Made by a program: the position numbers and the translations under genes
Notes under the pieces: model-generated
Database searches by the model: none
What the model saw: only the letters and a program-made list of their open reading frames with translations
Told to the model about the DNA's origin: nothing
Origin: Thermodesulfobacteriota bacterium
Lineage (GTDB): Bacteria > Desulfobacterota > Desulfarculia > JACQYL01
NCBI GenBank assembly: GCA_963675595.2
Contig: CAXXLZ010000001.1
Span: 1,408,001-1,472,000, forward strand
DNA: 64,000 nt
Reading direction: 5' to 3'
Part shown: positions 3-42,190 of the stretch, piece after piece
Numbering within the stretch: the stretch's first letter is position 1
Layout: each line of letters begins with the position of its first letter

Positions 3-281
3 GTCATCCGCTGTGTGGCCCGCCTTTTTGTCTGCGGCGATGCCCTCTACTCGCGGAGGGCCAGAGAAAACCTCCAGCGGCTGGGGGAGACGCTTCATCA
101 CGTTGAATTCGAGGTGGAGGTCATCGATGTTAACGAGACCCCCCAGCTGGCCCTGGACCAGGGGATTTTCGTCAATCCCGCCCTTCAGGTGCTCGAACCT
201 GCGCCGGGAACGCTGATTTACGGAGACTTGAGCGATTTTCAGGCATTGGCCGCTATATTCCCGAAAGGTGATGACCAATGA
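3..281 (+). CDS. kaiB: KaiB-family (circadian clock KaiB-like) thioredoxin-fold protein, probably 5'-truncated by the window edge
   Basis: RLFVCG..S.RA.ENL...EVEVIDV.E.PQLA...IFVNPAL...P....IYGDLSD matches the KaiB pattern. The frame is open to the window start. The stop overlaps the next ATG (ATGA). Confidence 0.85.
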   Translation, partial: VIRCVARLFVCGDALYSRRARENLQRLGETLHHVEFEVEVIDVNETPQLALDQGIFVNPALQVLEPAPGTLIYGDLSDFQALAAIFPKGDDQ

Positions 282-3200: not shown

Positions 3201-5980
3201 GGATTCTGGTTTTTGGCAGCAATATTGACGACCGGAAACAGATCGAGCGGGAACTTCGCAGAAGTGAGGAACATTTTCGATTTATCGTGGATCATTCGTA
3301 TGACCTGATATGGACACTGATGGTAGATGGCGTGTTCTCCTATGTTTCCCCTTCATGGAAAACAAGACTCGGCTATCAACCGTCGGATGTCATGGGCGAG
3401 GCGTTTCAACAGTTTGTCCATCCCGATGATATTGCCGGGTGCGAAGAGTATATGTGGAAGGTTCTTGATGCACATAGCGCCTTAACCGGATATCAGTACC
3501 GAGCCAGGCATGCCGACGGGTCGTGGAGATGGCATGAAGCTGTTATGACGCCCACTTATGCCGAAGACGATTCGTTCCTCTCTTTCGTCGGCGTCTCAAG
3601 AGATATTACCGACCGTAAGCGACTGGAAGAGGTCTTGCGCGAGAGCGAGCAGCGGCTTCAAGCCGTGTTCAACGCCGTGGACAGCGTCCCGATTCAGGGA
3701 TACGACAAGGATCGGCGGGTTGTCTTCTGGAATCCCGCCAGCGAGAAGCTTTATGGCTATATCCATGACGAAGCCGTTGGCCGGCCTTTGGAGGAACTAA
3801 TCATTCCCGAGGAGTCTCGGGAATCGGTAGTGGAAGCGATCCGGCAGTGGCACGATCACGACATTCCCATCCCCGCGGGCGAGATCGAGCTTCTTAACAA
3901 GAATTGCGAGCGGCTTCAGGTCCACTCCAACCACATCATGATCACCAACCATCGCGGCGACAAGGAAATGTTCTGCATCGACGTGGACCTGACCGACATC
4001 CGACGGATCGAACAGAGCATGGCCTCCTTGTCGGCGGTTGTCGAGAACAGTGACAATATCGTGGTCGTCAAGGATTTGGATCTTCGCGTCGTCGCGACGA
4101 ACCCGGCCTTCGCGAAAGCCGCCGGCCACCCCACGGTCGATACGATGATCGGAAAGACGGACGCCGAAATTTTCGGCGTCACGCCCGACACCGAGCCGAT
4201 TCGCTCCTACATGGAAGATGAACGTCGCGCTCAGACCCTGCCGCCGGGCGAGTACATCCTGCGCGAGGAACCGGTTGTGACCCCTGACGGCGGGGTGCGT
4301 ACGGTTCTGACCAAAAAGTATCCGATCTATGACCGATCGGGGAACTTGATTGGAACAGGCAACATCTCCACCGACATCACCGAGCGCAAGCAGGCTGAAG
4401 AACGGCAGAAAAATCTAGCGACCGAACTCGAAGAGATCCTTGATTCTTTGCCTGATGCAGTGGTGTATGCCGATACGGATCGCCGAATCAAGAAGGTGAA
4501 TCCTTCGTTTACGCGCATTTTCGGATATAACCGTGATGAGATTCTTGGAAAGAAGACTCGAATTATTTACCGCAATGATGAGGAATACCTTGAGCAAGGT
4601 CGTAAGCGGTACAATCCGAAAGCCCCGCAAATGTGGGAACCATATGAATTCTATCATGTTCGAAAGGACGGGACCGAATTTATCAGTGAAACTGTCGGAA
4701 CACCGGTCCACAACTCACAAGGGGAAGTTGTCGGCCTGCTCGGACTCGTACGGGACATCACGGAGAAAAAACAAAGTGAATCAGAGAATGAAAAGCTGCA
4801 GGCCCAACTCCGTCAGGCTCAGAAAATGGAGTCGGTGGGTCGACTGGCCGGCGGCGTTGCCCACGATTTCAACAACATGCTGGGCGTAATCCTGGGCTCC
4901 GCGGAAATGGCGTTGGATGATACGAGTCCTTATGATCCGCAGTATGCAAGCCTGAAGGAAATCTACAAGGCGGCTCGGCGTTCTTCGGATCTTACCAGGC
5001 AACTCCTTGCCTTCGCTCGAAAGCAGACGATTTCTCCAGAAATCCTGGACTTGAACAAGACCGTGGAAGCTATGCTCAAAATGCTCAGGCGACTCATCGG
5101 CGAAGACATCGACCTCTCCTGGATGCCGGGAAGCCCCTTATGGAAGGTCAAAATGGATCCTTCCCAAATTGATCAAATACTGGCCAATCTATGCGTCAAT
5201 GCAAAAGATGCCATTGCGGGGACGGGCCGGGTCACCATCGAGACCGTGAATGTTACCTTGGACGAGGCACAATGTGCGGAGCAAGTCGGCTTCTTGCCCG
5301 GCGAATATGTCCTCTTGGCTTTGAGCGATAACGGTTGCGGAATGGATTCCGAGACGATGTCACACTTGTTCGAGCCTTTTTTCACCACCAAAGCGGTCGG
5401 CCATGGCACTGGGCTTGGCTTAGCCACGATCTACGGCATCGTCAAACAGAATGGGGGGTTCATCTACGTCGAAAGCGAGCCGGGCAGAGGAACAACATTT
5501 TCCATTTATTTTCCGAGACACGTGTATAAGGTGGAAGCCTTCTCCCGTGCCGAAACCAAGACTTCGGCGGAACTCGGCAGCGAAACCATTCTATTGGTGG
5601 AGGATGAAGAAGCCATGTTGAACATGGCGAAGACCATGCTGGAACGGCTGGGATACCGCGTCTTGGCCTGCGGAACGCCCGTCGAAGCGGAGCGATTGAC
5701 GCTGGAACACGGCGGCGAAATCCATCTGCTCATGACCGATGTGATCATGCCGGAAATGAACGGCAGGGAACTGGCCGAAAGGCTCATATCTCGATATCCG
5801 AACATGAGAAGCCTTTTTACATCCGGTTACACGGCGGATGTCATCGGTCGCCATGGAGTGCTTAACGAGGGCGTGCACTTCATACAGAAGCCGTTCTCCA
5901 AGAAGGACTTGGCGGCCAAGGTTCGGGAAGCCCTTTCGACAATACCTCGTCTTGGTCCAAGAGACTACCAAGGGGGCTGA
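278..5980 (+). CDS. Hybrid sensor histidine kinase: GAF, ~10 PAS/PAC, HisKA, HATPase, C-terminal receiver
   Basis: 1900 aa ORF with repeated PAS motifs (RHKDG, DITERK), H-box [16 protein letters not shown]-box FFTTK..G.GTGLGL, and a receiver (LLVEDE..LLMTDVIMP..FIQKPF). Confidence 0.95.
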   Translation: MSASKSPPYDELKRRMEAAESALKAIREGRVDTILGERETLVVRLAEAEAREAHLKQVLLAIRNVNQLIVAEDDPQRLIEQACVNLTETMGYHNAWIALLGGKAGLGLGLGTEGPVATAAAAGFDVGFETLRERLERGEFPECMKRAMENEDTLVKDDPMVDCPDCPLHAQYGGRAGLVRRLDAGGVTYGILTASVPAAYARNAEEQELFNEVAGDLAFALYKIAAARKLEENRQHLSFVIEGSGVGTWEWNVRTNETLFNEQWATMLGYTIEELTPYDYGTWERLVHPEDLERARQALADCVEGRTTDYNCEFRMKHKDGRWVWILDRGRIMTRDDAGKALSMFGTHTDITDLKQTEEALKRQHTMLARTEAIAHVGSWEWDIAEDRVRWSDELFRIFGRNPDTEAPSFAQHLEIYLPEDMERLKEAVEHCVSQGTSYELELRAIRSDGEIRHCFARGQAETDETGRVVRLAGSLQDLTEQKKQHERISLLVRMLDEAPASITIHDVEGGFLYANRETFSLHGYDEDEFMSINLHELDVPESEALLEERFRLIFEKGEASFEVNHYRKDGTAFPLQVLAKQVQWEDRPAVLSIATDISDRKRMERRHQVLADIIKRSRDFIGVADFRKEAFFVNPAGREMVGLDGDEEVAGTKIEDYFLKEDIAFVNNVIIPTVVQEGRWAGEFRFRHFKTGKSVPVLYDLFRSEDPSTGEMINYATVTRDITERKRTEDALKFANTKLSIAMQAAGQGLWEWSLSTDTVHFDDAALEMLGYRREDIQGPMETGKWWISQAHPDDKAYMEERFDRYLSGKEKEYHVEFRLKDKDGGYLWVESSARVISKDPAGNPEVVVGIHQDISKRKRIEQNLIQSEKNYRDIFDNSSDCIFIHDATTGAIVDVNRTTCETFGYSVEEIKHLEVGDFSLNRPPYTSAEAVEWIKKAHKEGPQRFEWLAKDRMGRLIWFENNLLNAQIGGKDRILVFGSNIDDRKQIERELRRSEEHFRFIVDHSYDLIWTLMVDGVFSYVSPSWKTRLGYQPSDVMGEAFQQFVHPDDIAGCEEYMWKVLDAHSALTGYQYRARHADGSWRWHEAVMTPTYAEDDSFLSFVGVSRDITDRKRLEEVLRESEQRLQAVFNAVDSVPIQGYDKDRRVVFWNPASEKLYGYIHDEAVGRPLEELIIPEESRESVVEAIRQWHDHDIPIPAGEIELLNKNCERLQVHSNHIMITNHRGDKEMFCIDVDLTDIRRIEQSMASLSAVVENSDNIVVVKDLDLRVVATNPAFAKAAGHPTVDTMIGKTDAEIFGVTPDTEPIRSYMEDERRAQTLPPGEYILREEPVVTPDGGVRTVLTKKYPIYDRSGNLIGTGNISTDITERKQAEERQKNLATELEEILDSLPDAVVYADTDRRIKKVNPSFTRIFGYNRDEILGKKTRIIYRNDEEYLEQGRKRYNPKAPQMWEPYEFYHVRKDGTEFISETVGTPVHNSQGEVVGLLGLVRDITEKKQSESENEKLQAQLRQAQKMESVGRLAGGVAHDFNNMLGVILGSAEMALDDTSPYDPQYASLKEIYKAARRSSDLTRQLLAFARKQTISPEILDLNKTVEAMLKMLRRLIGEDIDLSWMPGSPLWKVKMDPSQIDQILANLCVNAKDAIAGTGRVTIETVNVTLDEAQCAEQVGFLPGEYVLLALSDNGCGMDSETMSHLFEPFFTTKAVGHGTGLGLATIYGIVKQNGGFIYVESEPGRGTTFSIYFPRHVYKVEAFSRAETKTSAELGSETILLVEDEEAMLNMAKTMLERLGYRVLACGTPVEAERLTLEHGGEIHLLMTDVIMPEMNGRELAERLISRYPNMRSLFTSGYTADVIGRHGVLNEGVHFIQKPFSKKDLAAKVREALSTIPRLGPRDYQGG

Positions 5981-6033
5981 GCTGAGTCGGAAGTTATTGG
6001 ATATCAGGCTCAAGCTCAAATATCCGGATCACT

Positions 6034-9000
6034 TTGCACAACAAGATACACCCGCATTTTCCGGAATTCATGGTGATCGATATGTCCGACCGGAACGTTC
6101 AAACCGTATTCGTGGTCAACGACGATCATGTTCAGCTTTCCATATTGGAAGCGCTGATACGAAAGGCGGGTCATGAGCCGCGTGTTTTCAGCTCTGCGGA
6201 ACAGGCTTTGAATGCCGTGGATCCGCTGCAGCCTCCTTCACTCGTTGTGACCGATTTACATATGCCGGGTATCGACGGTTGGCAACTTTGCAGACTGATG
6301 CGTTCACCCGAATATGCTTTTTTGATGAACGTTCCCATCATCGTAGTATCGGCGACCTTTTATGGTGACGAACCCGAACGGATTGCCGCGGACCTCGGAG
6401 TCGCCGCTTTTTTCACGTCTCCGGTGGATGGCGATGATTTCGTTCGGCAGGTGAGGGCCGTTCTGGAGGTAAGGCACAGCCTTATTCCTTCACGCGTCCT
6501 GATCGTCGAAGATGCACGGACCTTGTCCGGAATGATTGAGAAAGCCTTCACCGAAGAAGAGTATCAAGTCCACAAGGCATTTACGATAGAAGCCGCCAAG
6601 GAAGCCTTATCCACGGCCTTGTACGATTTGGCCGTGATCGACCATGATCTGGCCGACGGCAAGGGCGATAACCTGCTGGAACTGCTGAAAGCACAACAAC
6701 CTGATTGCGTCTGTTTGATGATGACAGGCGACTCGAATCCGCAAAGGGCGATTGATTGGATGAAACGAGGCGCCGCGGCTTACCTTCGCAAGCCTTTCGA
6801 TCCCGATCATCTTATCGAATTATGCCGGCGGGCACGACGTGAACGCACACTGCTCCGGACCCAGAACTTGCTTGAAATTCGGACGCACGAACTGAAGGAA
6901 AGCAGGCACCAATTTCAACAAATCTTTGAAGGCAGTCGGGACGGATTTGTCATCGTTGATGAACAACAGCGAATCACAAACGCGAACCGCGCCTTTTGCC
7001 GAATGTTGGGCTACTCCCTTGAGGAGTTACGGGCCATGGCCGGTTTTCAAAAGATCACCCCGTCACGCTGGCACCAATGGGAAGATGAGGAAATCTGGAA
7101 TAAACGCTTGCTGCAAGAGGGTTATTCGGGAGTTTACGAAAAGGAGTACATACGCAAAGATGGTTCAATATTTCCCGTGGAGCTCCAAGCCTACACGGTT
7201 TTGGATGAAAACGGCAAGATATCCTATCTATGGGGGGTCGCACGAGACATCTCTGAGCACAAACAGGCGGATGCATCCCTGCGTCGAAGTCAATCCCGCT
7301 ACCAATCCCTGACCGAGAATTTTCCCAACGGCGCGATTTTTCTATTTGACGAAGACTTTCGCTACCTCTTGGTAGGAGGCGAAAGCCTGCGCAAAGCCGG
7401 GCTTTCGAGTGAGGAGCTTGTGGGCAGAACGGTAAAGGAAGTTTTTCCCGACTTATGGAGCACAATACGTCCCCACGCTCAGGCGGCCTTGCGCGGAGAA
7501 AAGAGTTATTACGAAGTCGAGTATAAAGGTCGTATCTATTCGAATCAGGCGTTGCCCATCAAGGATCCTTCCACTAGCTTTCGCCAAGCCCTCGTTCTCA
7601 CGCAGGATATCACAGAACGCAAACGGATTGAGGAGGCGTTGTCCAAAAGCGAGGAAAAGTACCGCGTCCTGGTAGAGAACGCAGGAGAGGCCATCTTCGT
7701 CGCTCAAAACGGGAGGCTGAAGTTTCACAACAGCAGGACCGAGACGATGATCGGTTTCAGCAAGGACGAACTGACATCCAAACCTTTCATTGACTTCATA
7801 CATCCCGAAGACCGTTCACTCGTGCTGAATCGACACATGAAAAGACTGCAGGGAGAGATCGATGAGCCCTCCAAGTACAGCTTCAGGATCGTGCACCGTT
7901 CAGGGAAGACACTCTGGGTTGAGCTAAAGGTGGTCCTCATCGAATGGTTCGGAGAACGGGCCACGCTGAATTTCTTGTCCGATATCACCGATCGGAAACG
8001 GGCTGAAGGAGCGCTGCTCGCCAGTGAAATCCGTTTCCGTGATCTGGCAAGACAAGCACCTTTCAGCATTCAGGTACTCGATCTTAGCGGCAAGACACTG
8101 CAGGTCAACGATGAGTGGAACCGACTGTGGGGAATAAGTCTTGCCGATATCGCACATTACAACATCTTTGAAGACCGGCAGCTCCTGGAAAACGGGGTTA
8201 TAGAGCACGTCAAAAGGGCGTTTTGTGGCGAGAACGTGATCATTCCGCCGATGGAATATTCAGCTGAGAAAACCGTTGGAAAGGGACAAAGTAGGTGGGT
8301 TCAGGCACGTGCCTTTCCGGTTCGGGACGAGTTGGGCAATATCCGAGAGGTCACCCTGATACATGAAGATATTGGCGAGCGCAAGCGTGCCGAGGAGGCA
8401 CTCAAACAAAGCGAAGCAAAATATCGCGCCCTTGTTGAAAACAGCACCGACATCATATGGACTTACGATCTCGCTTCAAAGAAATATACTTTTGCAGCCG
8501 GCGCCCTCGAATCCACATTAGGATATTCGCCTAACGAGGCCTCCGGCATGAGCCTCGACGATCTGTTCGACTCAGACACCAAGAAGAGGATTTCCGCCGA
8601 ATTCCAGAAAATTTTGGAAAGTAACGGACAAGACAAAAAGATCAAGATCGAAGCAACACATCGCCACAAGAACGGCGGTTACGTCCCACTCGAGATATTC
8701 GCTTCTTTGGTGCGTGACGACAAAGAAAGACCTGTCGCTTTCAGTGGAGTTTCCCGCGACATCACGGAGCGTCTCCAAAACGAAAAGGCGCTGCGCGAAA
8801 GCGAAGAGCGATTCCGAATGCTCCTGAACGACGTATCCATGGTATCCGTCCAAGGCTACGCACCGGACGGAACGACGCTATATTGGAATGAGGGTTCACG
8901 GATTCTATACGGATATACTTCGGACGAAGCGCTCGGTTCCAACCTGTTGGACCTGATCATCCCTCCTGAAATGCGAGATGAAGTAGCCACAGCGATTCGT

Positions 9001-10338
9001 CAAATGGCCGAAACAGGACGACCTATTCCCCCTTCCGAATTGGAACTAATGCGAAAAGACGGCACCCGTGTTCAGGTTTTTTCTTCTCATTGCATACTTA
9101 AGCGATCCGGGCGGCCCCAAGAGCTCTATTGCGTCGACGTAAACCTAAGCGCCATCAAACAGGCCGAGGTGGAACGGGAAAGAATGCGGGAGCAGCTGCT
9201 TCAGGCTCAGAAAATGGAGTCGGTGGGTCGACTGGCCGGGGGCGTAGCCCACGATTTCAACAACATGCTGGGCGTTATTCTTGGCCACGTGGAATTGGCC
9301 CTGCAACAATCGGTGCCGGATGACCCGCTCTTCACCCCTCTGCAGGAAATCCAAAAAGCCGCGCGGCGATCCGCAGACCTGACTGGACAACTCCTAGCCT
9401 TCGCCCGGAAGCAGCCGGTAAGACCCAAGAACCTTGACCTGAACATTACAGTGTCAGGCATGCTTACGATGCTCCACAGGCTGATCGGAGAGAATATTCA
9501 GCTTGTATGGAGGCCCGAAGGTGATCTATGGCAAGTCAGGATGGATCCAGCGCAATTGGACCAGATTCTAGTGAATCTATGTGTCAATGCCCGCGATGCC
9601 ATTGGAGAATGTGGCAAAATAGCCATACAAACACGGAACGTCTCTTTGAACAAAGTAGAGAGTGGCATGCCTCCGGAATTTGTTCCCGGCTGCTATGTGC
9701 TCCTCACCGTATCCGATGACGGATGCGGTATGGACAAAAACACATTGGACAAGCTCTTCGAGCCTTTCTTTACCACCAAGGGAGTCGGCAAAGGAACCGG
9801 TTTGGGCTTGGCTACAGTGTACGGTATTGTCCGCCAGAATAACGGGTTTGTGAACGTCGACAGCAAACTTGGGCAGGGAACGACTTTCAGCGTTTATTTA
9901 CCTCGGCATGACAAGGCACCGGATTCCAAACCACTTGAAGCTACCGCCAGCCCATCGGTAGTCGTCCTAGAAACGATTCTGGTGGTAGAGGATGAGCCGA
10001 TGATCCTCAATATTACCAAAACAATGCTTGAGCGGTTGGGATATAAGGTTTTGGCCGCTGGTAATCCCCGCGAAGCAATTCGCATAGCCGATGAGCATGA
10101 CGAAGAAATTCATCTGCTCATGACCGACGTCATCATGCCGGAAATGAACGGCAAGGAACTGGCGGAACGTGTGAGGTCTCGGTATCCCAAAATCGGAATA
10201 CTGTTCACTTCCGGATACACGGCCGATGTCATCGCAGATCACGGGGTTTTAAGCGAAGGTATCCACTTCATTCAGAAGCCTTTTTCACAGAACGATTTGG
10301 CAACCAAAGCAAAAAAAGCCCTGGATGGCAGACGGTGA
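6034..10338 (+). CDS. Hybrid histidine kinase REC-REC-PAS(n)-HisKA-HATPase-REC (true start may be ~6082)
   Basis: Two N-terminal receivers (VVTDLHMP, AVIDHDL), multiple PAS domains, H-box AHDFNNML, and a C-terminal receiver. Confidence 0.95.
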   Translation: MHNKIHPHFPEFMVIDMSDRNVQTVFVVNDDHVQLSILEALIRKAGHEPRVFSSAEQALNAVDPLQPPSLVVTDLHMPGIDGWQLCRLMRSPEYAFLMNVPIIVVSATFYGDEPERIAADLGVAAFFTSPVDGDDFVRQVRAVLEVRHSLIPSRVLIVEDARTLSGMIEKAFTEEEYQVHKAFTIEAAKEALSTALYDLAVIDHDLADGKGDNLLELLKAQQPDCVCLMMTGDSNPQRAIDWMKRGAAAYLRKPFDPDHLIELCRRARRERTLLRTQNLLEIRTHELKESRHQFQQIFEGSRDGFVIVDEQQRITNANRAFCRMLGYSLEELRAMAGFQKITPSRWHQWEDEEIWNKRLLQEGYSGVYEKEYIRKDGSIFPVELQAYTVLDENGKISYLWGVARDISEHKQADASLRRSQSRYQSLTENFPNGAIFLFDEDFRYLLVGGESLRKAGLSSEELVGRTVKEVFPDLWSTIRPHAQAALRGEKSYYEVEYKGRIYSNQALPIKDPSTSFRQALVLTQDITERKRIEEALSKSEEKYRVLVENAGEAIFVAQNGRLKFHNSRTETMIGFSKDELTSKPFIDFIHPEDRSLVLNRHMKRLQGEIDEPSKYSFRIVHRSGKTLWVELKVVLIEWFGERATLNFLSDITDRKRAEGALLASEIRFRDLARQAPFSIQVLDLSGKTLQVNDEWNRLWGISLADIAHYNIFEDRQLLENGVIEHVKRAFCGENVIIPPMEYSAEKTVGKGQSRWVQARAFPVRDELGNIREVTLIHEDIGERKRAEEALKQSEAKYRALVENSTDIIWTYDLASKKYTFAAGALESTLGYSPNEASGMSLDDLFDSDTKKRISAEFQKILESNGQDKKIKIEATHRHKNGGYVPLEIFASLVRDDKERPVAFSGVSRDITERLQNEKALRESEERFRMLLNDVSMVSVQGYAPDGTTLYWNEGSRILYGYTSDEALGSNLLDLIIPPEMRDEVATAIRQMAETGRPIPPSELELMRKDGTRVQVFSSHCILKRSGRPQELYCVDVNLSAIKQAEVERERMREQLLQAQKMESVGRLAGGVAHDFNNMLGVILGHVELALQQSVPDDPLFTPLQEIQKAARRSADLTGQLLAFARKQPVRPKNLDLNITVSGMLTMLHRLIGENIQLVWRPEGDLWQVRMDPAQLDQILVNLCVNARDAIGECGKIAIQTRNVSLNKVESGMPPEFVPGCYVLLTVSDDGCGMDKNTLDKLFEPFFTTKGVGKGTGLGLATVYGIVRQNNGFVNVDSKLGQGTTFSVYLPRHDKAPDSKPLEATASPSVVVLETILVVEDEPMILNITKTMLERLGYKVLAAGNPREAIRIADEHDEEIHLLMTDVIMPEMNGKELAERVRSRYPKIGILFTSGYTADVIADHGVLSEGIHFIQKPFSQNDLATKAKKALDGRR

Positions 10339-10355
10339 GAACGCAATCTTAACCG

Positions 10356-10775
10356 TCAGAAGAAACCAAACAACCCCCGGTCCTTCTTCTCCTGCATCAC
10401 GCCTTTACGCTCTCTGGCCGACGCCGCAATGCCGGCGAGCTTCTCCAATGACTTCGCGAACCTGCTCGAAAAGACCCAGCCTTCCCGATAACCGTGCCGC
10501 TTATTGAAGCGAGAGACGTGGTCAATCAGCCCCATACGCCGCATCTTACTTCGGACGGTTTCGAGGATTCTCGATGAAAAACTGTATTTATTGCATAACG
10601 GCTGAAGGGTGCTCAAGAATTCATGCTTAGCATACTTGAGTTCGATGAAGATTGCGAGAAAAACTCGCTGATGGTTCTTGTTGGCTGGGAATAGGATAGC
10701 CGCGAGTTCATCCAGGTCCCGAGTCCTCGCGATCTTGTTATGGCTGAGTTCGATTTTGGTGCTGACGGTTGCCAT
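10356..10775 (-). CDS. Hypothetical basic protein, possible winged helix
   Basis: The ATG at 10775 overlaps the upstream TGA (GAGGTGATG). The segment ILETVRSKMRRMGLI...GWVFS is wHTH-like. Confidence 0.6.
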   Translation of the reverse strand: MATVSTKIELSHNKIARTRDLDELAAILFPANKNHQRVFLAIFIELKYAKHEFLSTLQPLCNKYSFSSRILETVRSKMRRMGLIDHVSRFNKRHGYREGWVFSSRFAKSLEKLAGIAASARERKGVMQEKKDRGLFGFF

Positions 10776-11143
10776 CACCTCGTATGCCGGCACCGGCCGA
10801 TGGCCGGCTTACCGTAACCATTCTCTTTCAGGGCTTCCTTCCGCAGTTCGACTCGTTGTTTCGCGATTTCGAGAGCCATGCCCCTAAGCTCAGTGCCAAA
10901 GGTATTTTCAACCCAATAAATCGCCTCATAGGCCGAGACGTACTTGTCACCAAAGAGCCTTTGAAACCGCCACCTGATTCCCTGGCGGGTGAGCCCAAAG
11001 GTATTCTCGATCTTGTCGCCGTAATTTCTGCGCAATACGAACCGCTTCAGGCCGTCCTCCTTCAGTTCAATCTTGAGGTCTCTATCGTCGATCAACATCT
11101 TGAGCTTTTCAATGAACTCCTTGTCCTTTTCAGTCAATTTCAT
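10775..11143 (-). CDS. Hypothetical protein, possible HTH (FGLTRQGIRWRF)
   Basis: ORF overlapping both neighbours in a three-gene operon. Confidence 0.6.
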   Translation of the reverse strand: MKLTEKDKEFIEKLKMLIDDRDLKIELKEDGLKRFVLRRNYGDKIENTFGLTRQGIRWRFQRLFGDKYVSAYEAIYWVENTFGTELRGMALEIAKQRVELRKEALKENGYGKPAIGRCRHTR

Positions 11144-11945
11144 TATAGGGCGGCTCGATTTCGATATCCGAGCCGTATTGTGTGACCCGCACTTCCCCAT
11201 CCTGAAGCAGGAAAATCAGAGCCATAAATCGCATCGCCCGATCTCTCCGGGCATTATCGATCAGGAGATCAATCCTGGAAAACAGGATTTGTTGACACCT
11301 GTGAACCGAATCCAGGATATGGCGTCTGTACCGGGACAGCCCAGGAAGATTCCCAGTCAGGGAGAACTCCTCGCCCCAAACTCCCGCGTCAAAACCCATG
11401 AAACCCGACAATGCTTCAGTAAACCCAGGCAAACGATCAAGCCGTGGTTCCTCCAGTAACGCCAACCCGCCCGACCGCTCTTCTCGACGGGCGAGCCTCA
11501 TCATCTCTCTTCGCCTTCTTGCCTTGGCTCTCGATTCAGCCATCCGTTGCCGGAAATAGGCTCGGTCGAAGACCCGTTCATCGAACAAGAACCGGGACGG
11601 CACGGTCTTCCCACAGGAAGCGCACGCATAATGAAGACTCCGCCTGACCAGCTTTGCTCCGCAGCAGCCGCTCCTTTGAAACACCACTGTGGGGTCGAGT
11701 TCATGGCCGCTCGGACAAACGGCCAGACCTGCCTCCAGCATCCGAAGTTTTTCACCGCATAGAGGACACAAATGATTCGCCAGCATAACGTCGTAGTAGT
11801 AGTCTCGGGCCGCAGCCTTGTATTGAGCAACGCCGAAAACAAACTCCCCGATAATCCGGCCGACGGCCGCCTCCGGCTCTTCCAAGTCAGAGACCATCGC
11901 TGAGTGTTCGCCAGACTGAGCCGGTTCCGGTGTTCCGCATTCCAT
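11130..11945 (-). CDS. Zn-ribbon protein with ScpA/kleisin-like C-terminal winged helix
   Basis: Cys clusters CPLC, CPSGH, SGCC and CASC. The C-terminus RFMALIFLLQDGEVRVTQYGSDIEI resembles the ScpA FLALLEL..G.V.V.Q...gdI motif. Confidence 0.55.
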   Translation of the reverse strand: MECGTPEPAQSGEHSAMVSDLEEPEAAVGRIIGEFVFGVAQYKAAARDYYYDVMLANHLCPLCGEKLRMLEAGLAVCPSGHELDPTVVFQRSGCCGAKLVRRSLHYACASCGKTVPSRFLFDERVFDRAYFRQRMAESRAKARRRREMMRLARREERSGGLALLEEPRLDRLPGFTEALSGFMGFDAGVWGEEFSLTGNLPGLSRYRRHILDSVHRCQQILFSRIDLLIDNARRDRAMRFMALIFLLQDGEVRVTQYGSDIEIEPPYNEID

Positions 11946-11968
11946 ATTTATTGGGAAGCAGAGCTTTC

Positions 11969-12016
11969 TTATAAACATTTCTCTCCCACGCCGCAGAATT
12001 CGGAAAAGTTTATATA
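11969..12016. promoter_or_regulatory. Divergent BRE/TATA-like promoter pair
   Basis: Minus strand GAAATGTTTATAA (11981-11969) lies ~25 nt before ATG 11945. Plus strand GAAAAGTTTATATA (12003-12016) precedes GAGGTGA and ATG 12051. Confidence 0.5.
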
Positions 12017-12050: not shown

Positions 12051-12194
12051 ATGCCAAGACCCTATAAGTGCCCATATTGCGGCGCAACCCAAAGCCACTG
12101 GAAAGGATACAGGCCCCTTGTCCAGGGAAAAGTCCGGCTCCGGATGTGCACCAAGTGCCACCGGAAGTTCACGACTCGAGTTAAGATCGAATAA
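12051..12194 (+). CDS. Small Zn-ribbon protein (47 aa, InsA-like pattern)
   Basis: MPRPYKCPYCG...KGYR...RLRMCTKCHRKFT, with SD GAGGTGA at 12039-12045. Confidence 0.6.
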   Translation: MPRPYKCPYCGATQSHWKGYRPLVQGKVRLRMCTKCHRKFTTRVKIE

Positions 12195-12209: not shown

Positions 12210-13484
12210 TCAATGAAAACCGCCGAACGGCCCGGCACCAAATCCTTCTCTCGATAAGAACCGGTTGAGGGTTTCCTTGGGGAGCGACCTCGATATTTCT
12301 CTTGTCTGGCCGTACCTGCCGCGTGATATCAGCCGAGCGTTGATCAGCCCATAAAGGTCAAGGGAACCAATGATGTCCGAGAACCTCCGTTGCGTGAGCG
12401 GCCTGACCCGTTCCAACTCGCAGAAATTAGCGTATCGATCATAGGCTTCGCCCGTAGTGACCCGTTTCGAAGTCTTGGCCAGAAGATCGTAGCAGGAAAG
12501 AAGCGCAAGTTTTTGCTGAGGAGCGAGCGCCCGAACCATCTCTTCGGTCTTGTCCATCTCCAATCTGTGCTCAGCCATATCCACGATTTCTTCGGACAGC
12601 CTGCCGCCGGTTTCCTGCGCCACCTTGGCCGACTTTGATAGAAGCTCCACCGCCTTTCTCGCATCACCGGTGTCCCGCGACGCCAATGCCGCGATCTTTC
12701 GAACAGCAGCCACGTCCACCTTTGACTTGTCCAATGCCTTTTCCACTCGAAGATTCAGAATTTCTATCAAATCCAAGGCGTTATAGGGTTCAAAGAGCAT
12801 GTCCGTCTTCTTGAGAACACTCAGAATCCGCGGGTCCAGCATCTTGTCCCAGTTCAGTTTGTTCGTGACCATGATAAGAACCAACCGGCAGGGAATCTTT
12901 CTCGGAAGGGTCTTTCCGAGGAAGGTAATAAACTCGTCCGCATTGGGCTTGATGTTATCCGCCTCATCAATCAGGAGGCACAAGAAACCCTGGAACCGGT
13001 TCAGCTCTTCGATGATTCGTTCCTGCATCTGATCAATGGGAATGCCTTTCCTGTAGGTGCGAATCGAGTCATTGAGTGCTCTTGCAAGTTCATTCAACGC
13101 TCCGAAAGAGGACCTGGGCGAGGTCAAGTCCACGTATCTGTACTGAAACCCGATCGACTGAGTCCGGCAATATTCCTGGAAAGTTGAAAGCACGTGAATG
13201 AGGGAAACCGTTTTCCCTGAACCCGTAGGCCCGAAGACCAGCAAAGAACTCGGATGATCGCCGTCCAGGATGGGAGTCAGATGACAGACGATGCGTTTCA
13301 GCTGCTCTTCCCGGATATTCCGATCAAAAATCTCCTTCAGAACCGAAGTCCGCTCTTCTTCAGGCAACTTCTCGTCGTCCAGATAGTTGGGGTTCAAAAT
13401 AAGGCGATGATTCTTCTGTGAGTCATGCAATGTGCGGATGAATTGCAAGGAAGCTTCGGAATGATCTCCACCGGACATTTTCAA
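12210..13484 (-). CDS. cdc6: Orc1/Cdc6-family (archaeal-type) replication initiator AAA+ ATPase
   Basis: Walker A GPTGSGKT, Walker B LLIDEAD, LDPRILS, F.PYNA.DL.EIL..R, sensor-II GDARKAVELL, and a C-terminal wHTH TTGEAY..Y...C......LTQRRFSDII.SL..YGLI.....SRGRYGQTREI. Confidence 0.92.
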   Translation of the reverse strand: MKMSGGDHSEASLQFIRTLHDSQKNHRLILNPNYLDDEKLPEEERTSVLKEIFDRNIREEQLKRIVCHLTPILDGDHPSSLLVFGPTGSGKTVSLIHVLSTFQEYCRTQSIGFQYRYVDLTSPRSSFGALNELARALNDSIRTYRKGIPIDQMQERIIEELNRFQGFLCLLIDEADNIKPNADEFITFLGKTLPRKIPCRLVLIMVTNKLNWDKMLDPRILSVLKKTDMLFEPYNALDLIEILNLRVEKALDKSKVDVAAVRKIAALASRDTGDARKAVELLSKSAKVAQETGGRLSEEIVDMAEHRLEMDKTEEMVRALAPQQKLALLSCYDLLAKTSKRVTTGEAYDRYANFCELERVRPLTQRRFSDIIGSLDLYGLINARLISRGRYGQTREISRSLPKETLNRFLSREGFGAGPFGGFH

Positions 13485-13505
13485 GCGATTCTTCTACAGG
13501 ACATC

Positions 13506-13520
13506 TATAAATAGTTTTCG
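13506..13520 (-). promoter_or_regulatory. BRE/TATA-like promoter of cdc6
   Basis: CGAAAACTATTTATA lies ~24-30 nt upstream of the TTG (13484) / ATG (13478) start. Confidence 0.45.
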
Positions 13521-13568
13521 GTAATAAGCCCTGTCGTTACTTGAAAGCGAACCGGATTTTAAGTGTGG

Positions 13569-13950
13569 GAAAGTTTCCGGTGGAACTTTCAGTTTCAGTT
13601 TTTAGTGATGTTTTCTTTTCCTTATTATTATTTATTTCTATATAGAAACTATATAATATAATATAATATAATATAATATAAAAGCCGCCAAAATATAGAA
13701 ACATTTTTAAAATAGATCACTTCAAAGTGGCAACAAAGAAACAAACATAACACACCCAACAAAACGGTTTCAAGTTTTCCACGCGACATTTACACACACT
13801 CTAAAAGCTGATTTTGGATCACTATTGAGTGACAACGTGGAGGCCATGACGTCCCTAAAAGACCTCGATCAACGACGGTATTTCAAGAAAACCCGAAACA
13901 ATCGGCCATTCGACAGTACAAGAGTAACGTTTCCACCGGAAGTTTACTCG
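13569..13950. other. Putative archaeal-type replication origin: ORB-like box, AT-rich DUE, inverted ORB-like box
   Basis: GTTCCACCGGAAAC on the minus strand (13586-13573) and TTTCCACCGGAAGT on the plus strand (13930-13943) flank an extremely AT-rich tract, immediately upstream of cdc6. Confidence 0.7.
13651..13680. repeat. (ATATA)6 tandem repeat within the AT-rich DUE
   Basis: Direct reading: atataatataatataatataatataatata. Confidence 0.95.
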
Positions 13951-20630: not shown

Positions 20631-21002
20631 CTACATCCGGACGTGGAGCCGGATTGCATTTTCGGTTTTCTTTTCGATCACCGTGTAGCCTTTACGCCGA
20701 GCTTCGGTCCGGGTCTTCTCCACCGCATAGGCCTGCTTCAAGAGTCCTCCGTTTACGCCGATGGCTCTTTCCACGTTGGGGTCGTAGAAGTCGCACTGAA
20801 GCTGGTACCTGCCGTGCATCCTCTGAACGCCGATTTCATAATCCGCGCCGGGCAATCGAATGGCATGCTCGCACGCTGCATTGTTTCCGTACCACCGGAA
20901 CTCTTTCCTGCCTTCGAGAAACACCAGGCCCAGCCGATTACACGCAGACTTCAGGACAGCGAGGTCCTTTACTTCGAGTTCGATTTTGACGATATGACTC
21001 AT
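20631..21002 (-). CDS. DUF1257 (Ycf35-like) family protein
   Basis: MSH...I.LEVKDL..LKSAC..LG...YEIG....G.Y.L..D...LKQAYA. Confidence 0.8.
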   Translation of the reverse strand: MSHIVKIELEVKDLAVLKSACNRLGLVFLEGRKEFRWYGNNAACEHAIRLPGADYEIGVQRMHGRYQLQCDFYDPNVERAIGVNGGLLKQAYAVEKTRTEARRKGYTVIEKKTENAIRLHVRM

Positions 21003-21481
21003 CGTATCCTCCGAATCGTTCTGACGGGTTCTTCGTCGCTTCTGCTCGCTCTCTTCGCCCGAGTCTCAGCCCAATCCCGGAGCGCTGAGAGCTGCTCCTT
21101 CATGGTTTTCGAAAGCGGAACAATGGCTTCACGAGCGTTTCCTAGGCCATCGAACAGCGAATCCTTGGCCAGCTGCTCGATCTCAGCGCCTGTCCATTCA
21201 GTGAGTTCAGCAGCATACTCGGAGGGTATTTCCGAACCGTATCGTTGATTCATGATCTCGATAATGGCTTCGCGCTCGTTTTTGTTCGGGATATCCACGA
21301 AAAAAAGGGCATCAAACCTCCCCGATCGCAGAAACTCAGGCGGAAGCCCCGAGATATCGTTGGCGGTTGCCATGACCAGAATCGGACTGGTAGTCTCTTG
21401 GAGCCAGAGGAGCAGATGCCCGAACATGGACGAGGTGGTACCGCCGTCCGTCATCCCCGAACTTTTCACCCCGGACAGCAC
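20999..21481 (-). CDS. Ycf46-like AAA ATPase, exon 2 (after group II intron)
   Basis: VLSGVKSSGMTDGGTTSSMFG.LL.WLQE..ATANDIS.LPPEFLRSGRFD..FFVD.P, which continues exon 1 in frame. Confidence 0.9.
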   Translation of the reverse strand: MLSGVKSSGMTDGGTTSSMFGHLLLWLQETTSPILVMATANDISGLPPEFLRSGRFDALFFVDIPNKNEREAIIEIMNQRYGSEIPSEYAAELTEWTGAEIEQLAKDSLFDGLGNAREAIVPLSKTMKEQLSALRDWAETRAKRASRSDEEPVRTIRRIR

Positions 21482-24042
21482 GTAGGGTAGGCAGCGGCCC
21501 TCCTGCAGAAGCAGGCTAAGCCGCCACCCCCCTCCGAACCGTACGTGCGGCTTTCACCGCATACGGCTCTCTACTTACACTTACCTGGAAATCTCAGGTC
21601 AGGCAGAGTCCCGTCATGGAGTTGCCGATGGCAGTGAACGCACAAGACCAGGGTTTTCCGATTGCGTTCACGCATCAGCTCTTTCCATGGTTCGTTGCCA
21701 TCAGCAACGGCACTCATACTCCCGGCGTGGTGCACCTCAAAGTAGCCGCCTGCACGCCCGCAGAACTCGCATTTCTGAGCCCTCAAACGAGAAAGGATAT
21801 CAGAGTACGTGGCCCGATACTTCTTTGTATTGGGTACACTGTCGAGATTCTGCAACAGGGAAGAGCGGTAAAATTTGAGGTCCTTCAACCTGAAGAGCCG
21901 AGTGGTGCGTAATTTCCCATGGTACCATTCGGTAATAGCGTATTCCCCCGGTTCAACCTTCAGACGCCTCCTCACTGTTCTCTTGCTGCAGCGGTGTTTT
22001 CGGGCAAATGTTCTCGTCAAACTTCGGAACCAGACGGACTGCAGTTTCTGCAATGCCCGAACTGCCCCTTGAGCGAGAACATAGTAATTGGCAAAGCCCC
22101 TCAACTCCGCGTTGTAAATCGTGAGGATTTGTGTATCCATTAGGTTGACCAAGTTAAGTCGGGGCATGACTTCAAAGTTCTCATAGTTGCCATATCCGTT
22201 CTTCTTGCAGAACGCCGCCATCTTATCGCTTGGGACTTTAAGCTGGATTCGACCAGCCCCAAGCCTCCTGGTCGTGTAGGTCCCGCCAAGTTTTACCTTG
22301 ACCGATTTTCCCACCGGGTAGGTTGTGATGTCATACCCGAGGAAGCGCGTTTCCTCAGTACAATGACGGAGGCCTGATTTCTCTTCGGAGATCTGCAGGC
22401 GCAAATGTTCTTGGACAAAACCACGAACAGTCTGCATGACCTGCCTGCAATCCTCCTTGGAGCCGATCATGCCGATGAGAAAATCATCGGCGTACCGGAT
22501 ATACATCAGTCTCTTGTAACCTTCGTCATGGAAATCCAAGGAAGGGACTAAACGTCGCATCCTGCAATGTTCCCGAAGTTCGGCTTCTATTTCTTTGAGC
22601 TTTTCGGTCTCCCCAGCCTGCTGAGCCCGGGCGAACCTTATCCTTTGACGACGGACCAGATACTGATAGCGGAGATACTCTTCGTTCCGGCGTCTTCGCT
22701 TTCCCTTGTTGAATTCCTGAACCAGACTTTCCATGAACTCGTCGAGCTCATGAAGGTAAATATTGGCTAGGATCGGGGAAATAATTCCACCTTGAGGAGT
22801 TCCACTATACGTGGCATGGTATTTCCAATCATCAATATAGCCGGCCTTAAGCATGGCCTTGATGAGATTGATGAAACGCCTGTCGTCAATCCGTTTCTCC
22901 AACAGTCTTATCAACACCTTATGGTCGATATTGTCGAAGAAACCCCGGATATCCATGTCGATGATCCACTTAACGCCGGTCCAGTATTTCTGAAGATACC
23001 GCAAAGCGGTATGACACGATCTTTCCGGACGAAATCCATGCGAGCGATCAGAAAAGATCGGCTCGTAGATTCGTTCCAGAATCGCTCGTGTCACTTCCTG
23101 GATCAGCTTGTCATCTCCGGAAGGTATGCCCAAGGGTCGCAACTTACCGTTGGCCTTGGGGATGTAAACGCGTTTTGATGGTTTGAACTTGTAACGACCG
23201 TCTTTGAGCAGCTTAATAATGTTCTTTGCCCGCTCATCGGAAAAGCCGTCCAGGGTCACGCCGTCCACGCCCTTCGTCATAGCACCTTTGTTTGAATAGA
23301 TATTGGCGTAGGCGTCTTCCCATAAAGTCGGGTTTTCCATGAGCCGAAATAGGCCGTTAACACGTTTCCCCTGCTTGGAGAGTTTTCCAAGAGCGTTCAA
23401 CCTCTTGATGGTCGTAGCGGACAGCATCAGCACATCCTCCTTTCAGAGTGTTGAACACGTTGCATAAGCTGTCTTCCTTCCCCCGGATAGAGGACCCTTC
23501 GTCGATGTCGCCACCGACTTATAGCCATATCCGTATCCCGCAATTGCGAGATCTGCAGAACCCATTACAGGCCCACCTTGGGTACTATGAAGACTCCGTC
23601 GCCATACAGGTCCGAGCCGTGTGCTCGTGACCAGCTTAGGCGATCCCGCATTTACGCCAGATCAAAGATTCGCCGTGGTTAGGTCTCCCGTTCGTCCCTT
23701 TTATCCTTCTCGTCGAAGGCATGCCGGACAGACGGAATATGCAGGTCGAAAAGTGGGCCTACATACAGTCCGGACTGGCGTTTCAGCTACTTTCACCAGT
23801 GCCCGAGCTACGGCCATGAGGACTGGGGTTCAAGCAGTTTAGCCTTGACCATACACGGCTTACGCTGACATCATCGTTGGTCGTAGCTACCTTCTTTGAT
23901 GCCTTTTCCCAACATGCTGCACTCCCCCCTCCCTTTCGGGACAAGGACCATTGCTGGTCAGAGATAAGTTGGGTGCGTACAGGATATTTCCGTAATCTTG
24001 GTGACTTCCGTCACACTCCTATCTGGCGCCAATACGGCGCAC
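21482..24042 (-). mobile_element. Group II intron (2561 nt, IIA/ML-like)
   Basis: 5' end GTGCG at 24042. Domain V GAGCCGTATGCGGTGAAAGCCGCACGTACGGTTC at 21569-21536. 3' end ...CCCTAC at 21482. Removal restores the host reading frame. Confidence 0.93.
21571..23433 (-). CDS. ltrA: Group II intron reverse transcriptase/maturase with HNH endonuclease
   Basis: RPLGIP, SHGFRP, GTPQGGIISPILANIYLH, YIRYADDF, FLGY, and a C-terminal CEFCG..EVHH..LCVHCH. Confidence 0.95.
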   Translation of the reverse strand: MLMLSATTIKRLNALGKLSKQGKRVNGLFRLMENPTLWEDAYANIYSNKGAMTKGVDGVTLDGFSDERAKNIIKLLKDGRYKFKPSKRVYIPKANGKLRPLGIPSGDDKLIQEVTRAILERIYEPIFSDRSHGFRPERSCHTALRYLQKYWTGVKWIIDMDIRGFFDNIDHKVLIRLLEKRIDDRRFINLIKAMLKAGYIDDWKYHATYSGTPQGGIISPILANIYLHELDEFMESLVQEFNKGKRRRRNEEYLRYQYLVRRQRIRFARAQQAGETEKLKEIEAELREHCRMRRLVPSLDFHDEGYKRLMYIRYADDFLIGMIGSKEDCRQVMQTVRGFVQEHLRLQISEEKSGLRHCTEETRFLGYDITTYPVGKSVKVKLGGTYTTRRLGAGRIQLKVPSDKMAAFCKKNGYGNYENFEVMPRLNLVNLMDTQILTIYNAELRGFANYYVLAQGAVRALQKLQSVWFRSLTRTFARKHRCSKRTVRRRLKVEPGEYAITEWYHGKLRTTRLFRLKDLKFYRSSLLQNLDSVPNTKKYRATYSDILSRLRAQKCEFCGRAGGYFEVHHAGSMSAVADGNEPWKELMRERNRKTLVLCVHCHRQLHDGTLPDLRFPGKCK

Positions 24043-24966
24043 CTTTTCCGTCTCATCGATCCATATGACCGCTTTTCCGAAAGCATCAATCGTTGCAGTA
24101 GCTTGCCTCATTTTTCGTTCGCTCTCTCCGACGAGAGAACCTTTCAAAGCGGACAAATCCAACCGGATGAGCGGCCATCCGAGGATCGAGGCCGCTGCCT
24201 TGCAGGAGAGCGATTTCCCGCAGCCCGGCACCCCGACCAAAAGCAAGGCTTTAGGTCTTGGCAGATGCTCATTGCCGGGCTCGAAGGCTTTCTTTCGGTT
24301 ATTGATGTACTCCTTCAGGAGATCGAGGCCTCCGACTTCTTCGATGGGCACCGGCGGCCAGAACTCCATCAGTCCCGTGCGTTTGATCATCTGCTTTTTC
24401 TGCTCGGTAACGATCTCCCTGCAGAACCGTTTTCGTTCCACCAAGGACCGGGCAAACGCGGTCTCAGCCTCGAACTCGGTAAGTCCCAGGGCAGATTCGA
24501 CAGCCTCCGCATCGGCTTCGATCCCGACGCTCTCCCCAAGCTCTTCCTGAATCCGTCGAAGTTCCTCAAGCCCCGGAAGTTCAAAGTCCAGCATGGTGAA
24601 GTACTTTTCCAATTCCGCCGGCAGGCTCACCTGAGGCCCCACCAAGACCAGACAACACCCTTGGCCTTTCCAGGAGGGCAGGCTGTTCTGGATTTCCTGG
24701 ATGATTTCCACGGAACCCAGGAAGTGATGAAAATTGTGCACGAAGAGCACGGTGTCCTCTTTTCCCGAGAGCCATTTGAGACTGCTCAAAGGATCGGTGG
24801 AATCGTCGTTTCGCATGCCGGACTGCAAATCCACGATGCCGCGTTGACAGTCCCAGGAAAATGTCCTCCATCCTTCGGGTCGAATGGAGCCGACCGCTCG
24901 ATCCGGTTCGAGGGTGATGATGTAAAGCGCCGGATACCCGGCTTTGAGATAACTCGAAATGTCCAT
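24043..24966 (-). CDS. Ycf46-like AAA ATPase, exon 1
   Basis: Start MDISSYLKAGYP with GGAG SD, VGGLDLLKEY, Walker A GVPGCGKS, and Walker B IWIDETEK ending at the intron 5' splice site. Confidence 0.9.
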
Positions 24967-25086
24967 ATCGTTCTCCTTCCGTTCGGAAACAGAAAAGGCC
25001 GCTTCCAGCTCACGGCCGGAAACAGCCCACAAAAAAAGCGGCCGAAGCCGCCGCCATCCATGCTCTTTGATTCTTTTCTTCTTTGT

Positions 25087-40037: not shown

Positions 40038-40472
40038 GCCGTTCCCTTCAAGAACCCAACGAAAGCCTTCTTTCCCCGTTCGTGTTCACAGGGTCAAAGG
40101 GAGAACGCTCTTACCGCCGGACCCCCGGTACTAAATTCCCGCCTGTAGGTGACGAAGCCGAAAGAGGGAGCTTCTTTGCCGATTCAGGGGATGTAAGTAA
40201 CGATGGAAATCAGCGAGGAAACCTGTTTTCCCTCAGCCTTTCCGCCGAAGGCGGTGACGCCTGCTTGAACCGTTTCAAGGGGGGTGCACGGGGGGAGCTT
40301 CTTCAAAAGTTCCCCCGTGAACGATTACCTTTCTCCGGTCCGCCATATGCTGCACCGTCATCACGCATGCTTTTCATCCCCTAAACGAACCATGAGATTG
40401 ATTCCAACGTCATTCCCAGTAAGAGCCCATATTGCCGCCTCGCTTGTTCCGGCAACCCGTTAAAAAACTAAG

Positions 40473-42134: not shown

Positions 42135-42190
42135 AAGAATCTTCCATCCGCAGCCGATTACCCCATACCCCGACGTAGGGAAACATGAAG

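Follow-up and report, generated by a model that had tools for sequence, protein, structure and literature searches.

The 64,000-nucleotide stretch of DNA analyzed here (the window; positions 1,408,001 to 1,472,000 of contig CAXXLZ010000001.1, assembly GCA_963675595.2, from a Thermodesulfobacteriota bacterium) carries an orc1/cdc6 gene within a bacterial genome. Directly upstream of this gene are inverted boxes resembling archaeal origin recognition boxes (ORBs), arranged around an extremely AT-rich tract, and gene and boxes together form a module near one end of a repeated element. The main features, in window coordinates, are as follows.

10348-36500, no strand assigned: repeated element of ~26 kb carrying the module, four genomic copies (blastn of the window against the genome)
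12210-13478, minus strand: orc1/cdc6 gene, encoding P0001 of 422 amino acids (aa) (hidden Markov model [HMM] and PDB matches)
13467-13483, plus strand: ORB-like box on the start codon, TCCACCGGACATTTTCA (repeat family D1; inverted pair I1 with 13569-13584)
13569-13590, minus strand: proximal ORB-like box GTTCCACCGGAAAC (13573-13586) within a 22-nt imperfect palindrome (sequence and repeat search)
13587-13777, no strand assigned: AT-rich tract, 23% GC, candidate unwinding element (GC scan)
13778-13794, plus strand: inner distal ORB-like box TCCACGCGACATTTACA, inverted with respect to the proximal box (repeat family D1)
13930-13948, plus strand: outer distal box TTTCCACCGGAAGTTTACT, exact inverted partner of 13575-13585

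The open reading frame (ORF) of orc1 spans 12210 to 13484 on the minus strand and is intact, and its likely start is the ATG at 13478. An earlier, sequence-only reading of the window had described an intact Cdc6/Orc1 ORF with Walker A and B motifs, a GDAR sensor II, and a winged helix with an SRGRYGQT wing, and all of these can be read in P0001: GPTGSGKT at residues 83 to 90, LLIDEAD at 168 to 174, GDAR at 271 to 274, and the wing at 385 to 392. The first three motifs are invariant across 28 relatives. P0001 scores 253.9 bits against TIGR02928 (orc1/cdc6 family replication initiation protein; cutoff, 181.3), 86.1 bits against Cdc6_C (residues 314 to 403), and 43.8 bits against Cdc6_lid. P0001 falls short of the cutoffs of the equivalog models NF001625, NF001623, and NF001626 (244.7 versus 501, and lower) and is therefore not an orthologue of any named archaeal subtype.

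The closest solved structure is Orc1-1 of S. solfataricus (2qby_A; 2.8e-51, residues 56 to 408), followed by ORC1 of A. pernix (2v1u_A; 5.3e-51), with weaker matches to Orc1-3 (2.5e-31) and to eukaryotic Cdc6 and Orc1 (1e-11 and weaker). By these scores, the other solved paralogues are far more distant from P0001 than are the origin-binding proteins Orc1-1 and A. pernix ORC1, and the wing pattern RGRYG.T.EI is identical in the alignment of P0001 with 2qby_A. The gap-poor course of this alignment over residues 56 to 408 also suggests that P0001 would contain the initiator-specific motif within the AAA+ fold. With the TIGR02928 cutoff exceeded and an end-to-end alignment with solved archaeal initiators, P0001 does not group with non-initiator AAA+ families.

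Four TCCAC-NN-GA boxes lie upstream of orc1; one on the minus strand opposes two on the plus strand across the AT-rich tract, and the fourth lies over the start codon. The order along the plus strand is box (+) at 13467-13483, box (-) at 13573-13586, the tract at 13587-13777, and boxes (+) at 13778 and 13932, and the proximal and the two distal boxes are 95 to 470 bp upstream of the orc1 start. The sequence-only reading had listed the proximal box and an outer distal box (TTTCCACCGGAAGT, 13930-13943, plus strand), each inside an imperfect palindrome, a partial third box at the cdc6 start (TCCACCGGA, 13467-13475), and an extremely AT-rich tract with (ATATA)6 between the inverted pair. Inspection and a repeat search bore out the inverted boxes and their palindromes, the third box was found in the position given, and the tract proved to have the lowest GC content of the window. 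The inner distal box at 13778-13794 is an addition to that list. The 11-nt arms at 13575-13585 and 13931-13941 are 100% complementary, a 9-pair stem is computed for the proximal palindrome at 13569-13590, and the 86-bp promoter and 5′ region is bracketed by a 16-nt inverted pair consisting of the start-codon box and the proximal box.

GC content is 23% in 13587-13777 compared with 52.8% in the whole window, and the eight 100-bp intervals of lowest GC in the 64 kb all start within 13581-13651. The tract contains a perfect palindrome, TTTCTATATAGAAA (13635-13648), the (ATATA)6 repeat (13651-13680), and sigma-70-like hexamers. When one mismatch is allowed, TTCCACCGGAA has 8 matches in the window against 2.03 expected, a number reached in 0 of 100 shuffles; the 2 exact matches are both within the intergenic region upstream of orc1. 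The short core TCCACNNGA shows no enrichment across the window (15 matches versus 10.3 expected), with 4 of the 15 falling within 474 bp at the orc1 region.

This arrangement can be compared with archaeal origins, in which inverted ORBs surround an AT-rich tract directly beside orc1/cdc6 (PMC3528665). A second source describes ‘TTCC’ and ‘GAA’ motifs as perfectly conserved in ORB and mini-ORB sequences and gives the 13-mer TTCCAGTGGAACT (PMC1904270). TTCCACCGGAA fits both motifs and agrees with the 13-mer, at equal spacing, in 9 of the first 11 positions. The canonical G-string of the ORB is indeed missing, as first noted from the sequence, and a C-run is found instead; this is no defect, since the G-string is halophile specific according to the same source on archaeal origins (PMC3528665).

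Conservation of the noncoding layout was assessed in 80 metagenomic loci encoding proteins of 57 to 87% identity, 65 of which have at least 400 bp upstream, 55 of these being nonredundant; boxes were called with a fixed-position pattern, TTCCA...GAAA, with at most one mismatch. A gene-oriented proximal box occurs at -175 to -80 in 46 of the 55 loci and a distal inverted box at -400 to -200 in 49. Both are present in 41 loci, where block shuffles predict 0.02, and 35 loci have an additional box at or near the orc1 start. Under this pattern one or both boxes are missing from 14 of the 55 loci, and L111 has none. In nearly all 65 loci a 60-bp GC minimum (2 to 37%) lies between the box zones at about -170 to -260, the exceptions being L072 (-72) and L057 (-296). 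The palindrome core of the AT-rich tract was found again in 18 of the 55 loci and also in L022 and L026. The layout is likewise present in L022 and L023, from a Desulfarculia genome, and in L026 and L029, from genome G027, whose proteins are 62 to 64% identical: upstream of these four genes are an inverted box, an AT-rich tract with TTTCTATAT(A/C)G(A/C)AATAAATAATA, and then TCTCCAC-NN-GAAAC with a C-run. The question raised with the initial reading, whether homologous elements keep the boxes, can thus be answered positively, as the layout is kept, and the boxes co-vary, in distant loci.

Co-variation within loci takes the form of two box classes, the TTCCACAGGAAA class and the TTCCATCGGAAA class. 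Among the 55 loci, 28 belong to the TTCCAC(A/C)GGAAA class and 17 to the TTCCATCGGAAA class, 9 are mixed, and L111, having no box, was left unclassed. Among the protein columns, wing residue 391 distinguishes the classes best (K in 16 of 16 versus N, S, or Y in 27 of 27), and the next separating positions in the winged helix include 396, 386, and 367. This link between box class and wing residue is suggestive.

A search of the genome with TIGR02928 found four orc1 genes, each at the left edge of a ~26-kb unit defined by blastn. In the window the left limit of the element is at 10348-10368 and the shared right limit at 36125; homology between copies A and B extends to 36496, and copies C and D diverge. 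The other copies lie at 0.90, 1.65, and 4.27 Mb of contig C2. The units are 88 to 98% identical and the four Orc1 proteins 98 to 100%; no two of the four copies have related flanks. The proximal box is present in all four copies with a variable central dinucleotide (CG, GA, or TA), the number of (TATAA)n repeats differs among copies, and the inner and outer distal boxes are conserved in copies A, B, and D. In copy C a 1,553-bp insertion sequence (IS; C2:1653243-1654795), which has ~17 genomic copies at 99.9% identity, has inserted into the AT-rich tract with a short flanking duplication; beyond it the palindrome and a distal box, TTCCACAAGAAATCTTCCCAC, are again present, and the neighboring orc1 is still intact. 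No direct repeat of at least 9 nt joins the ends of the element, and a 12-nt inverted match lies outside the shared limits.

The host is bacterial. Its assembly (6.79 Mb in 3 contigs, 98% complete) contains a bacterial small-subunit rRNA (1,630 bits) and two full-length dnaA-type genes, at C2:1987820-1989127 (397.5 bits) and C2:3059236-3060525 (327.3 bits). Cumulative GC skew is lowest beside the second dnaA, at C2:3.05 Mb, and highest at C1:1.23 Mb; the origin of the chromosome is therefore of the ordinary bacterial kind, and all three contigs seem to belong to a single replicon. The dnaA adjoining the minimum is the lower-scoring gene, under the cutoff of 343.9 bits, and the 397.5-bit gene lies away from it. 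A role of the orc1 module as the chromosomal origin was rejected, given the skew minimum at dnaA and no clear inflection at the orc1 copies at a resolution of 40 to 110 kb.

Genes for hybrid PAS/histidine kinase/receiver proteins flank the element on both sides, together with a chemotaxis receptor. The left host-element junction is crossed with zero differences by contigs from public runs of two studies (X1 record 1, 9800-10397; X3 record 17, 9800-11615), one of which may be the origin of the assembly itself. The sequence-only reading had named a chimeric assembly with archaeal DNA as one of the findings that would overturn it; what was found instead is four copies in a three-contig bacterial genome, junction-spanning contigs, and relatives in other bacterial genomes. 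The very long, PAS-rich hybrid sensor kinases that flank the element (278-10338 and 36570-47482) have segments 70 to 83% identical to paralogues elsewhere in the genome, e.g., at C2:3.12-3.15 Mb. Further along the window, IS-like repeats at 50005-51394 and 59170-61054 have at least 15 and at least 20 blastn matches, respectively, at 99.8 to 100% identity on all three contigs.

Among species representatives, orc1 was found in 2 of 40 relatives and in 2 of 400 other genomes of the phylum, and carriers among related genomes hold 2 or 4 copies each. A metagenome search gave 780 proteins at an E value of ≤1e-10 among 8,000 candidates scored, and for the sister clade 2,953 proteins were obtained at an E value of ≤1e-20. 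Source names of the relatives include Thermodesulfobacteriota, delta proteobacterium NaphS2, and Desulfarculia. In a library clustered at 50% identity, the four nearest clusters have identities of 55, 48, 42, and 41%, and the remainder are at ≤35%; the 42% cluster is Thermodesulfobacteriota/Syntrophales, and a 35% cluster is Planctomycetota/Phycisphaerae. Rarity in species representatives combined with abundance in metagenomes suggests an overlooked mobile-element lineage of anoxic sediments. A phage origin was considered and rejected, as IMG/VR gave no relative and a phage collection gave only the archaeal virus SNJ2.

In a FastTree phylogeny (124 rows, midpoint root), three named bacterial groups and six unnamed representatives form one clade (21 rows with Shimodaira-Hasegawa-like support of 99; 22 rows with 98) apart from 102 others. 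The phylogeny proposed with the initial reading thus recovered a bacterial clade; its placement as a single clade inside the archaeal Orc1 family is plausible, the archaeal status of the 102 remaining representatives being an assumption. P0129, P0418, P0490, and P0509, all from outside the window, represent a large Planctomycetota/Phycisphaerae Orc1/Cdc6 clade that groups with the Thermodesulfobacteriota clades in this tree. Such bacterial proteins already carry the labels Cdc6/Cdc18 or orc1/cdc6 family in databases, and no paper on a bacterial Orc1/Cdc6 or its origin was found in the searchable open-access literature and preprints. What is new is a known archaeal Orc1/ORB module set in a bacterial mobile-element lineage without MCM.

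Beyond the 3′ end of orc1, four genes recur in constant order in 16 to 19 nonredundant loci, and a Pfam scan assigned none of them to a family.

12051-12194, plus strand: zinc-ribbon ORF, 47 aa, convergent with orc1 (conservation)
11130-11978, minus strand: P0272, two zinc ribbons, a long helix, and a C-terminal winged helix; likely start, 11897
10775-11200, minus strand: P0273, ~122 aa from an internal Met; 16 related loci with 58 to 69% identity and the same order
10356-10793, minus strand: P0274, last gene at the left end of the element; 19 related loci, 15 of them with 59 to 69% identity

The 47-aa ORF is always located just 3′ of orc1 on the opposite strand; it is 52 to 70% identical in 16 of the 17 nonredundant loci having it and 48% identical in the 17th, and it matches Zn_ribbon_NrdR weakly (25.5 bits). 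Homologues of P0272 occur in 17 related loci (41 to 49% identity). Its AlphaFold2 model (predicted local distance difference test, 77.8; predicted template modeling [TM] score, 0.36) comprises an N-terminal helix, a zinc-ribbon region, a long helix, and a confident C-terminal winged helix. Foldseek returned no match for P0272 at an E value of ≤0.001, and no PDB sequence matched; the top folds, below the confidence line, are C-terminal winged helices of the kleisins ScpA (5h66_C; E value, 4e-3; TM score, 0.80 on the target) and Scc1, and the ESM Atlas likewise gave weak ScpA/Rad21 leads (SMC_ScpA, 0.78 and 0.75). In these models the likeness of P0272 to kleisins is a lead only. The ESM Atlas cluster of P0272 at 0.94 is mostly from Planctomycetota, and a P0272-type partner may accompany orc1 there too.

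The cargo of the window copy is typical of plasmids or integrative and conjugative elements (ICEs). Recognized products are PRiA4_ORF3, DUF3150, DUF2958, RadC, an FkbM methyltransferase, a LuxR response regulator, a TPR protein, a HerA-like ATPase, a PD-(D/E)XK nuclease, and an AAA ATPase split by a group II intron. The intron, at 21478-24042, divides the ATPase gene (minus strand) into exons at about 20999-21481 and 24019-25032; it is recognized by Rfam RF00029 at 21482-21571 (73.4 bits) and by an ORF with reverse transcriptase, maturase, and HNH domains at 21571-23433, and both pieces of the ATPase match PF00004, with a further match to phrog_8638. For copy B, overlapping blastn pieces look as though the intron stood twice in tandem. 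The HerA-like ATPase (DUF87, 658 aa) is translationally coupled to the PD-(D/E)XK/Dna2-like nuclease (256 aa) at 28286-31029 on the minus strand, and the pair recurs beside orc1 in 5 of the 80 metagenomic loci. Past the differing right end of copies C and D (L116; genome G000, C2:926800-938800) are genes for a nucleoside 2-deoxyribosyltransferase, a Mutator-family transposase, and the N-terminal half of a RecD2-like helicase, along with an IS3-type integrase and a DDE transposase. None of these could be tied to the orc1 module, although the helicase fragment may be part of that element variant. More widely, a Pfam census of 140 neighboring ORFs of at least 175 aa around 28 long related loci gave 6 Replic_Relax, 4 PD-(D/E)XK, and 2 ParA-type matches.

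The explanation that we favor, at a probability of roughly 0.6, is that a plasmid-like mobile element, now integrated in four copies, has orc1/cdc6 as its initiator gene and the 530 bp upstream as the matching origin, and uses some helicase other than MCM. Direct observation covers the protein family, the bacterial host, the presence of the element in several copies, and an architecture that is conserved and co-varies; from these we infer Orc1 binding, unwinding, helicase loading, and extrachromosomal replication. We envisage the following. (i) Orc1 would bind the TTCC-N3-GGAA-type boxes through its winged helix, with the proximal box (13573-13586) and the distal boxes (13778 and 13932) facing each other across the 23%-GC tract. 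(ii) ATP-bound Orc1 would deform and open this tract, upon which a replicative helicase would be loaded. (iii) Because MCM is found in neither element nor genome, this helicase must be a host DnaB-type helicase or an unrecognized enzyme, and the four conserved genes 3′ of orc1 are candidates for the adaptor step. (iv) The start-codon and proximal boxes, which bracket the orc1 promoter region, would probably serve in autoregulation through repression of the gene’s own promoter. A wider proposal concerns a large, hitherto undescribed lineage of mobile elements in Thermodesulfobacteriota that has sister clades in Planctomycetota: its members would use an Orc1/ORB origin without MCM, and the zinc-ribbon and winged-helix partners would hand the opened origin over to a helicase and replisome of bacterial type. 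This is tentative, and we would sooner bet against it than for it.

Several results weigh against a replication origin. First, the module travels without a helicase, primase, or polymerase. Neither MCM nor DnaB is among the 25 commonest families of the neighbor census, and a whole-genome search with the MCM model PF00493 gave weak, partial AAA+ matches only (best, 35.6 bits over 121 of 224 positions); at this score level the model is unspecific, because all 14 control genomes also exceed its cutoff. Second, no integrase, relaxase, or helicase was recognized among ~50 ORFs of the window copy searched against Pfam and PHROGs, the ORFs having been picked by hand so that small or divergent genes were possibly missed. 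Third, no circular junction or joint was found in the assembled contigs of four public runs, although such contigs cannot argue against excision and their depth is unusable as a copy number, and terminal repeats marking a circle were found in 0 of the 80 metagenomic loci, most of which are parts of contigs. Fourth, no bacterial plasmid relative is among the 30 matches listed of 418 PLSDB records (all archaeal, ≤29.5% identity), and IMG/VR holds no relative that was found. Fifth, the link between box class and residue 391 is not independent evidence, because the box classes are probably clades and shared ancestry would produce it. Finally, an autoregulated repressor would likewise show boxes upstream of its own gene. 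The sequence-only reading had proposed a complete archaeal-style replication-initiation module used by a mobile element; the initiator-family protein, the boxes, and the mobile element stand, “complete” does not, as no helicase, primase, or MCM lies alongside, and replication itself is a prediction.

The last of these objections leads to the main rival, which we consider unlikely: Orc1/Cdc6 would be the transcriptional switch of the element, autoregulated and perhaps DNA-damage responsive, with the boxes as operators and the AT-rich tract as promoter region. The lysogeny module of virus SNJ2 reportedly includes an Orc1/Cdc6-like protein; the record annotation reads only “Orc1/Cdc6 superfamily protein.” A three-gene module reportedly governs the lysogeny switch of SNJ2 (PMC10123103), and Orc1-2 is described as a non-initiator regulator of the DNA damage response (PMC9738581). 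The 16-nt inverted pair that encloses the promoter and 5′ region (86 bp), the sigma-70-like hexamers inside the tract, and a gene without an accompanying helicase would all suit such a switch. Against it, outside the orc1 upstream region the element holds one perfect 12-mer only, which lies inside a coding region and therefore gives no sign of a regulon, and no box clusters were found elsewhere in the window. Among the solved structures P0001 is nearest to those of origin-binding Orc1-1 and A. pernix ORC1, and a conserved tract of 100 to 200 bp at 5 to 25% GC, with inverted flanking sites and a variable microsatellite, exceeds what an operator needs.

A partition or DNA maintenance system, in which Orc1 would act on centromere-like boxes with a kleisin-like or centromere-binding-like winged-helix partner, is improbable. 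It draws on the resemblance of the C-terminal domain of P0272 to the winged helices of ScpA and Scc1 and to that of the pNOB8 centromere-binding protein AspA (E values, 4e-3 to 2e-2), together with the SMC_ScpA leads of the ESM Atlas; all of these fold matches are below the confidence lines of the tools, the winged helix is a very common fold, and the conserved five-gene core contains no SMC-type or ParA-type ATPase. An AT-rich center is not known to have a role in centromeres. An assembly chimera, archaeal contamination, or a functionless, decaying relic can be set aside as very improbable: the family is otherwise archaeal, and TIGR02928 exceeds its cutoff in 3 of the 14 control genomes, but there are four intact copies with proteins 98 to 99% identical versus 88 to 98% for the flanks, bacterial sensor kinases on both sides, a left junction crossed by contigs from two studies, and hundreds of intact relatives under bacterial names with a conserved noncoding layout.

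Initiation in bacteria (DnaA and DnaB) and in archaea and eukaryotes (Orc1/Cdc6 and MCM) is treated as the work of separate machineries. If the module is an initiator with its origin, the element appears to run an archaeal front end inside a bacterial cell without MCM and would be a natural hybrid of two nonhomologous cellular replication systems. Replication of the element would show the coupling of an Orc1-type initiator to a bacterial helicase, with the four partner genes as candidate adaptors, and would provide both a tractable system for the evolutionary exchange of initiators and helicase loaders and a new replicon type for the genetics of sulfate-reducing and planctomycete bacteria. Were the protein a regulator only, this would still be a conserved case of a bacterial element recruiting Orc1/Cdc6 together with its DNA sites.

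Among known systems, the module can be compared with four. (i) With Sulfolobus oriC1, Pyrococcus oriC, and the A. pernix ORBs it shares the initiator family, being closest to Orc1-1 and ORC1, and an origin region directly upstream of the gene, with inverted TTCC...GAA boxes around an AT-rich tract. Unlike these oriC1-type origins, it is in a bacterial host with a DnaA origin, MCM was not found, and the module is on a multicopy mobile element; the boxes also differ from archaeal ORBs in reading TTCCA(C/T)NGGAAA, with a C-run 4 to 5 nt downstream on the same strand and no G-string. (ii) Like haloarchaeal plasmids and minichromosomes (PMC3528665), the element would be a mobile replicon with its own Orc1/Cdc6 and adjacent inverted ORBs. 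Homologues occur in 418 PLSDB records, mostly haloarchaeal, with an identity of ≤29.5% among the matches listed; those hosts supply MCM, in contrast to the bacterial replisome of the present host. (iii) By analogy with bacterial plasmid Rep/iteron origins, the module may combine repeated sites next to an AT-rich tract with an element-encoded winged-helix initiator that probably regulates its own gene and relies on a helicase of the host; a preprint mentions a proposed relationship of the Rep WH1 domain to the winged helix of Orc1/Cdc6 (10.1101/2024.09.03.610885). It differs in having a full AAA+ Orc1/Cdc6 instead of Rep and inverted pairs instead of direct iterons. (iv) With non-initiator Orc1/Cdc6 regulators, such as Sulfolobus Orc1-2 and the SNJ2 protein, it shares domain architecture and, in the case of SNJ2, residence on a mobile element. 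It differs in that P0001 is 23% identical to the SNJ2 protein and in that its boxes show no regulon-like spread and are gathered around the AT-rich tract upstream of orc1.

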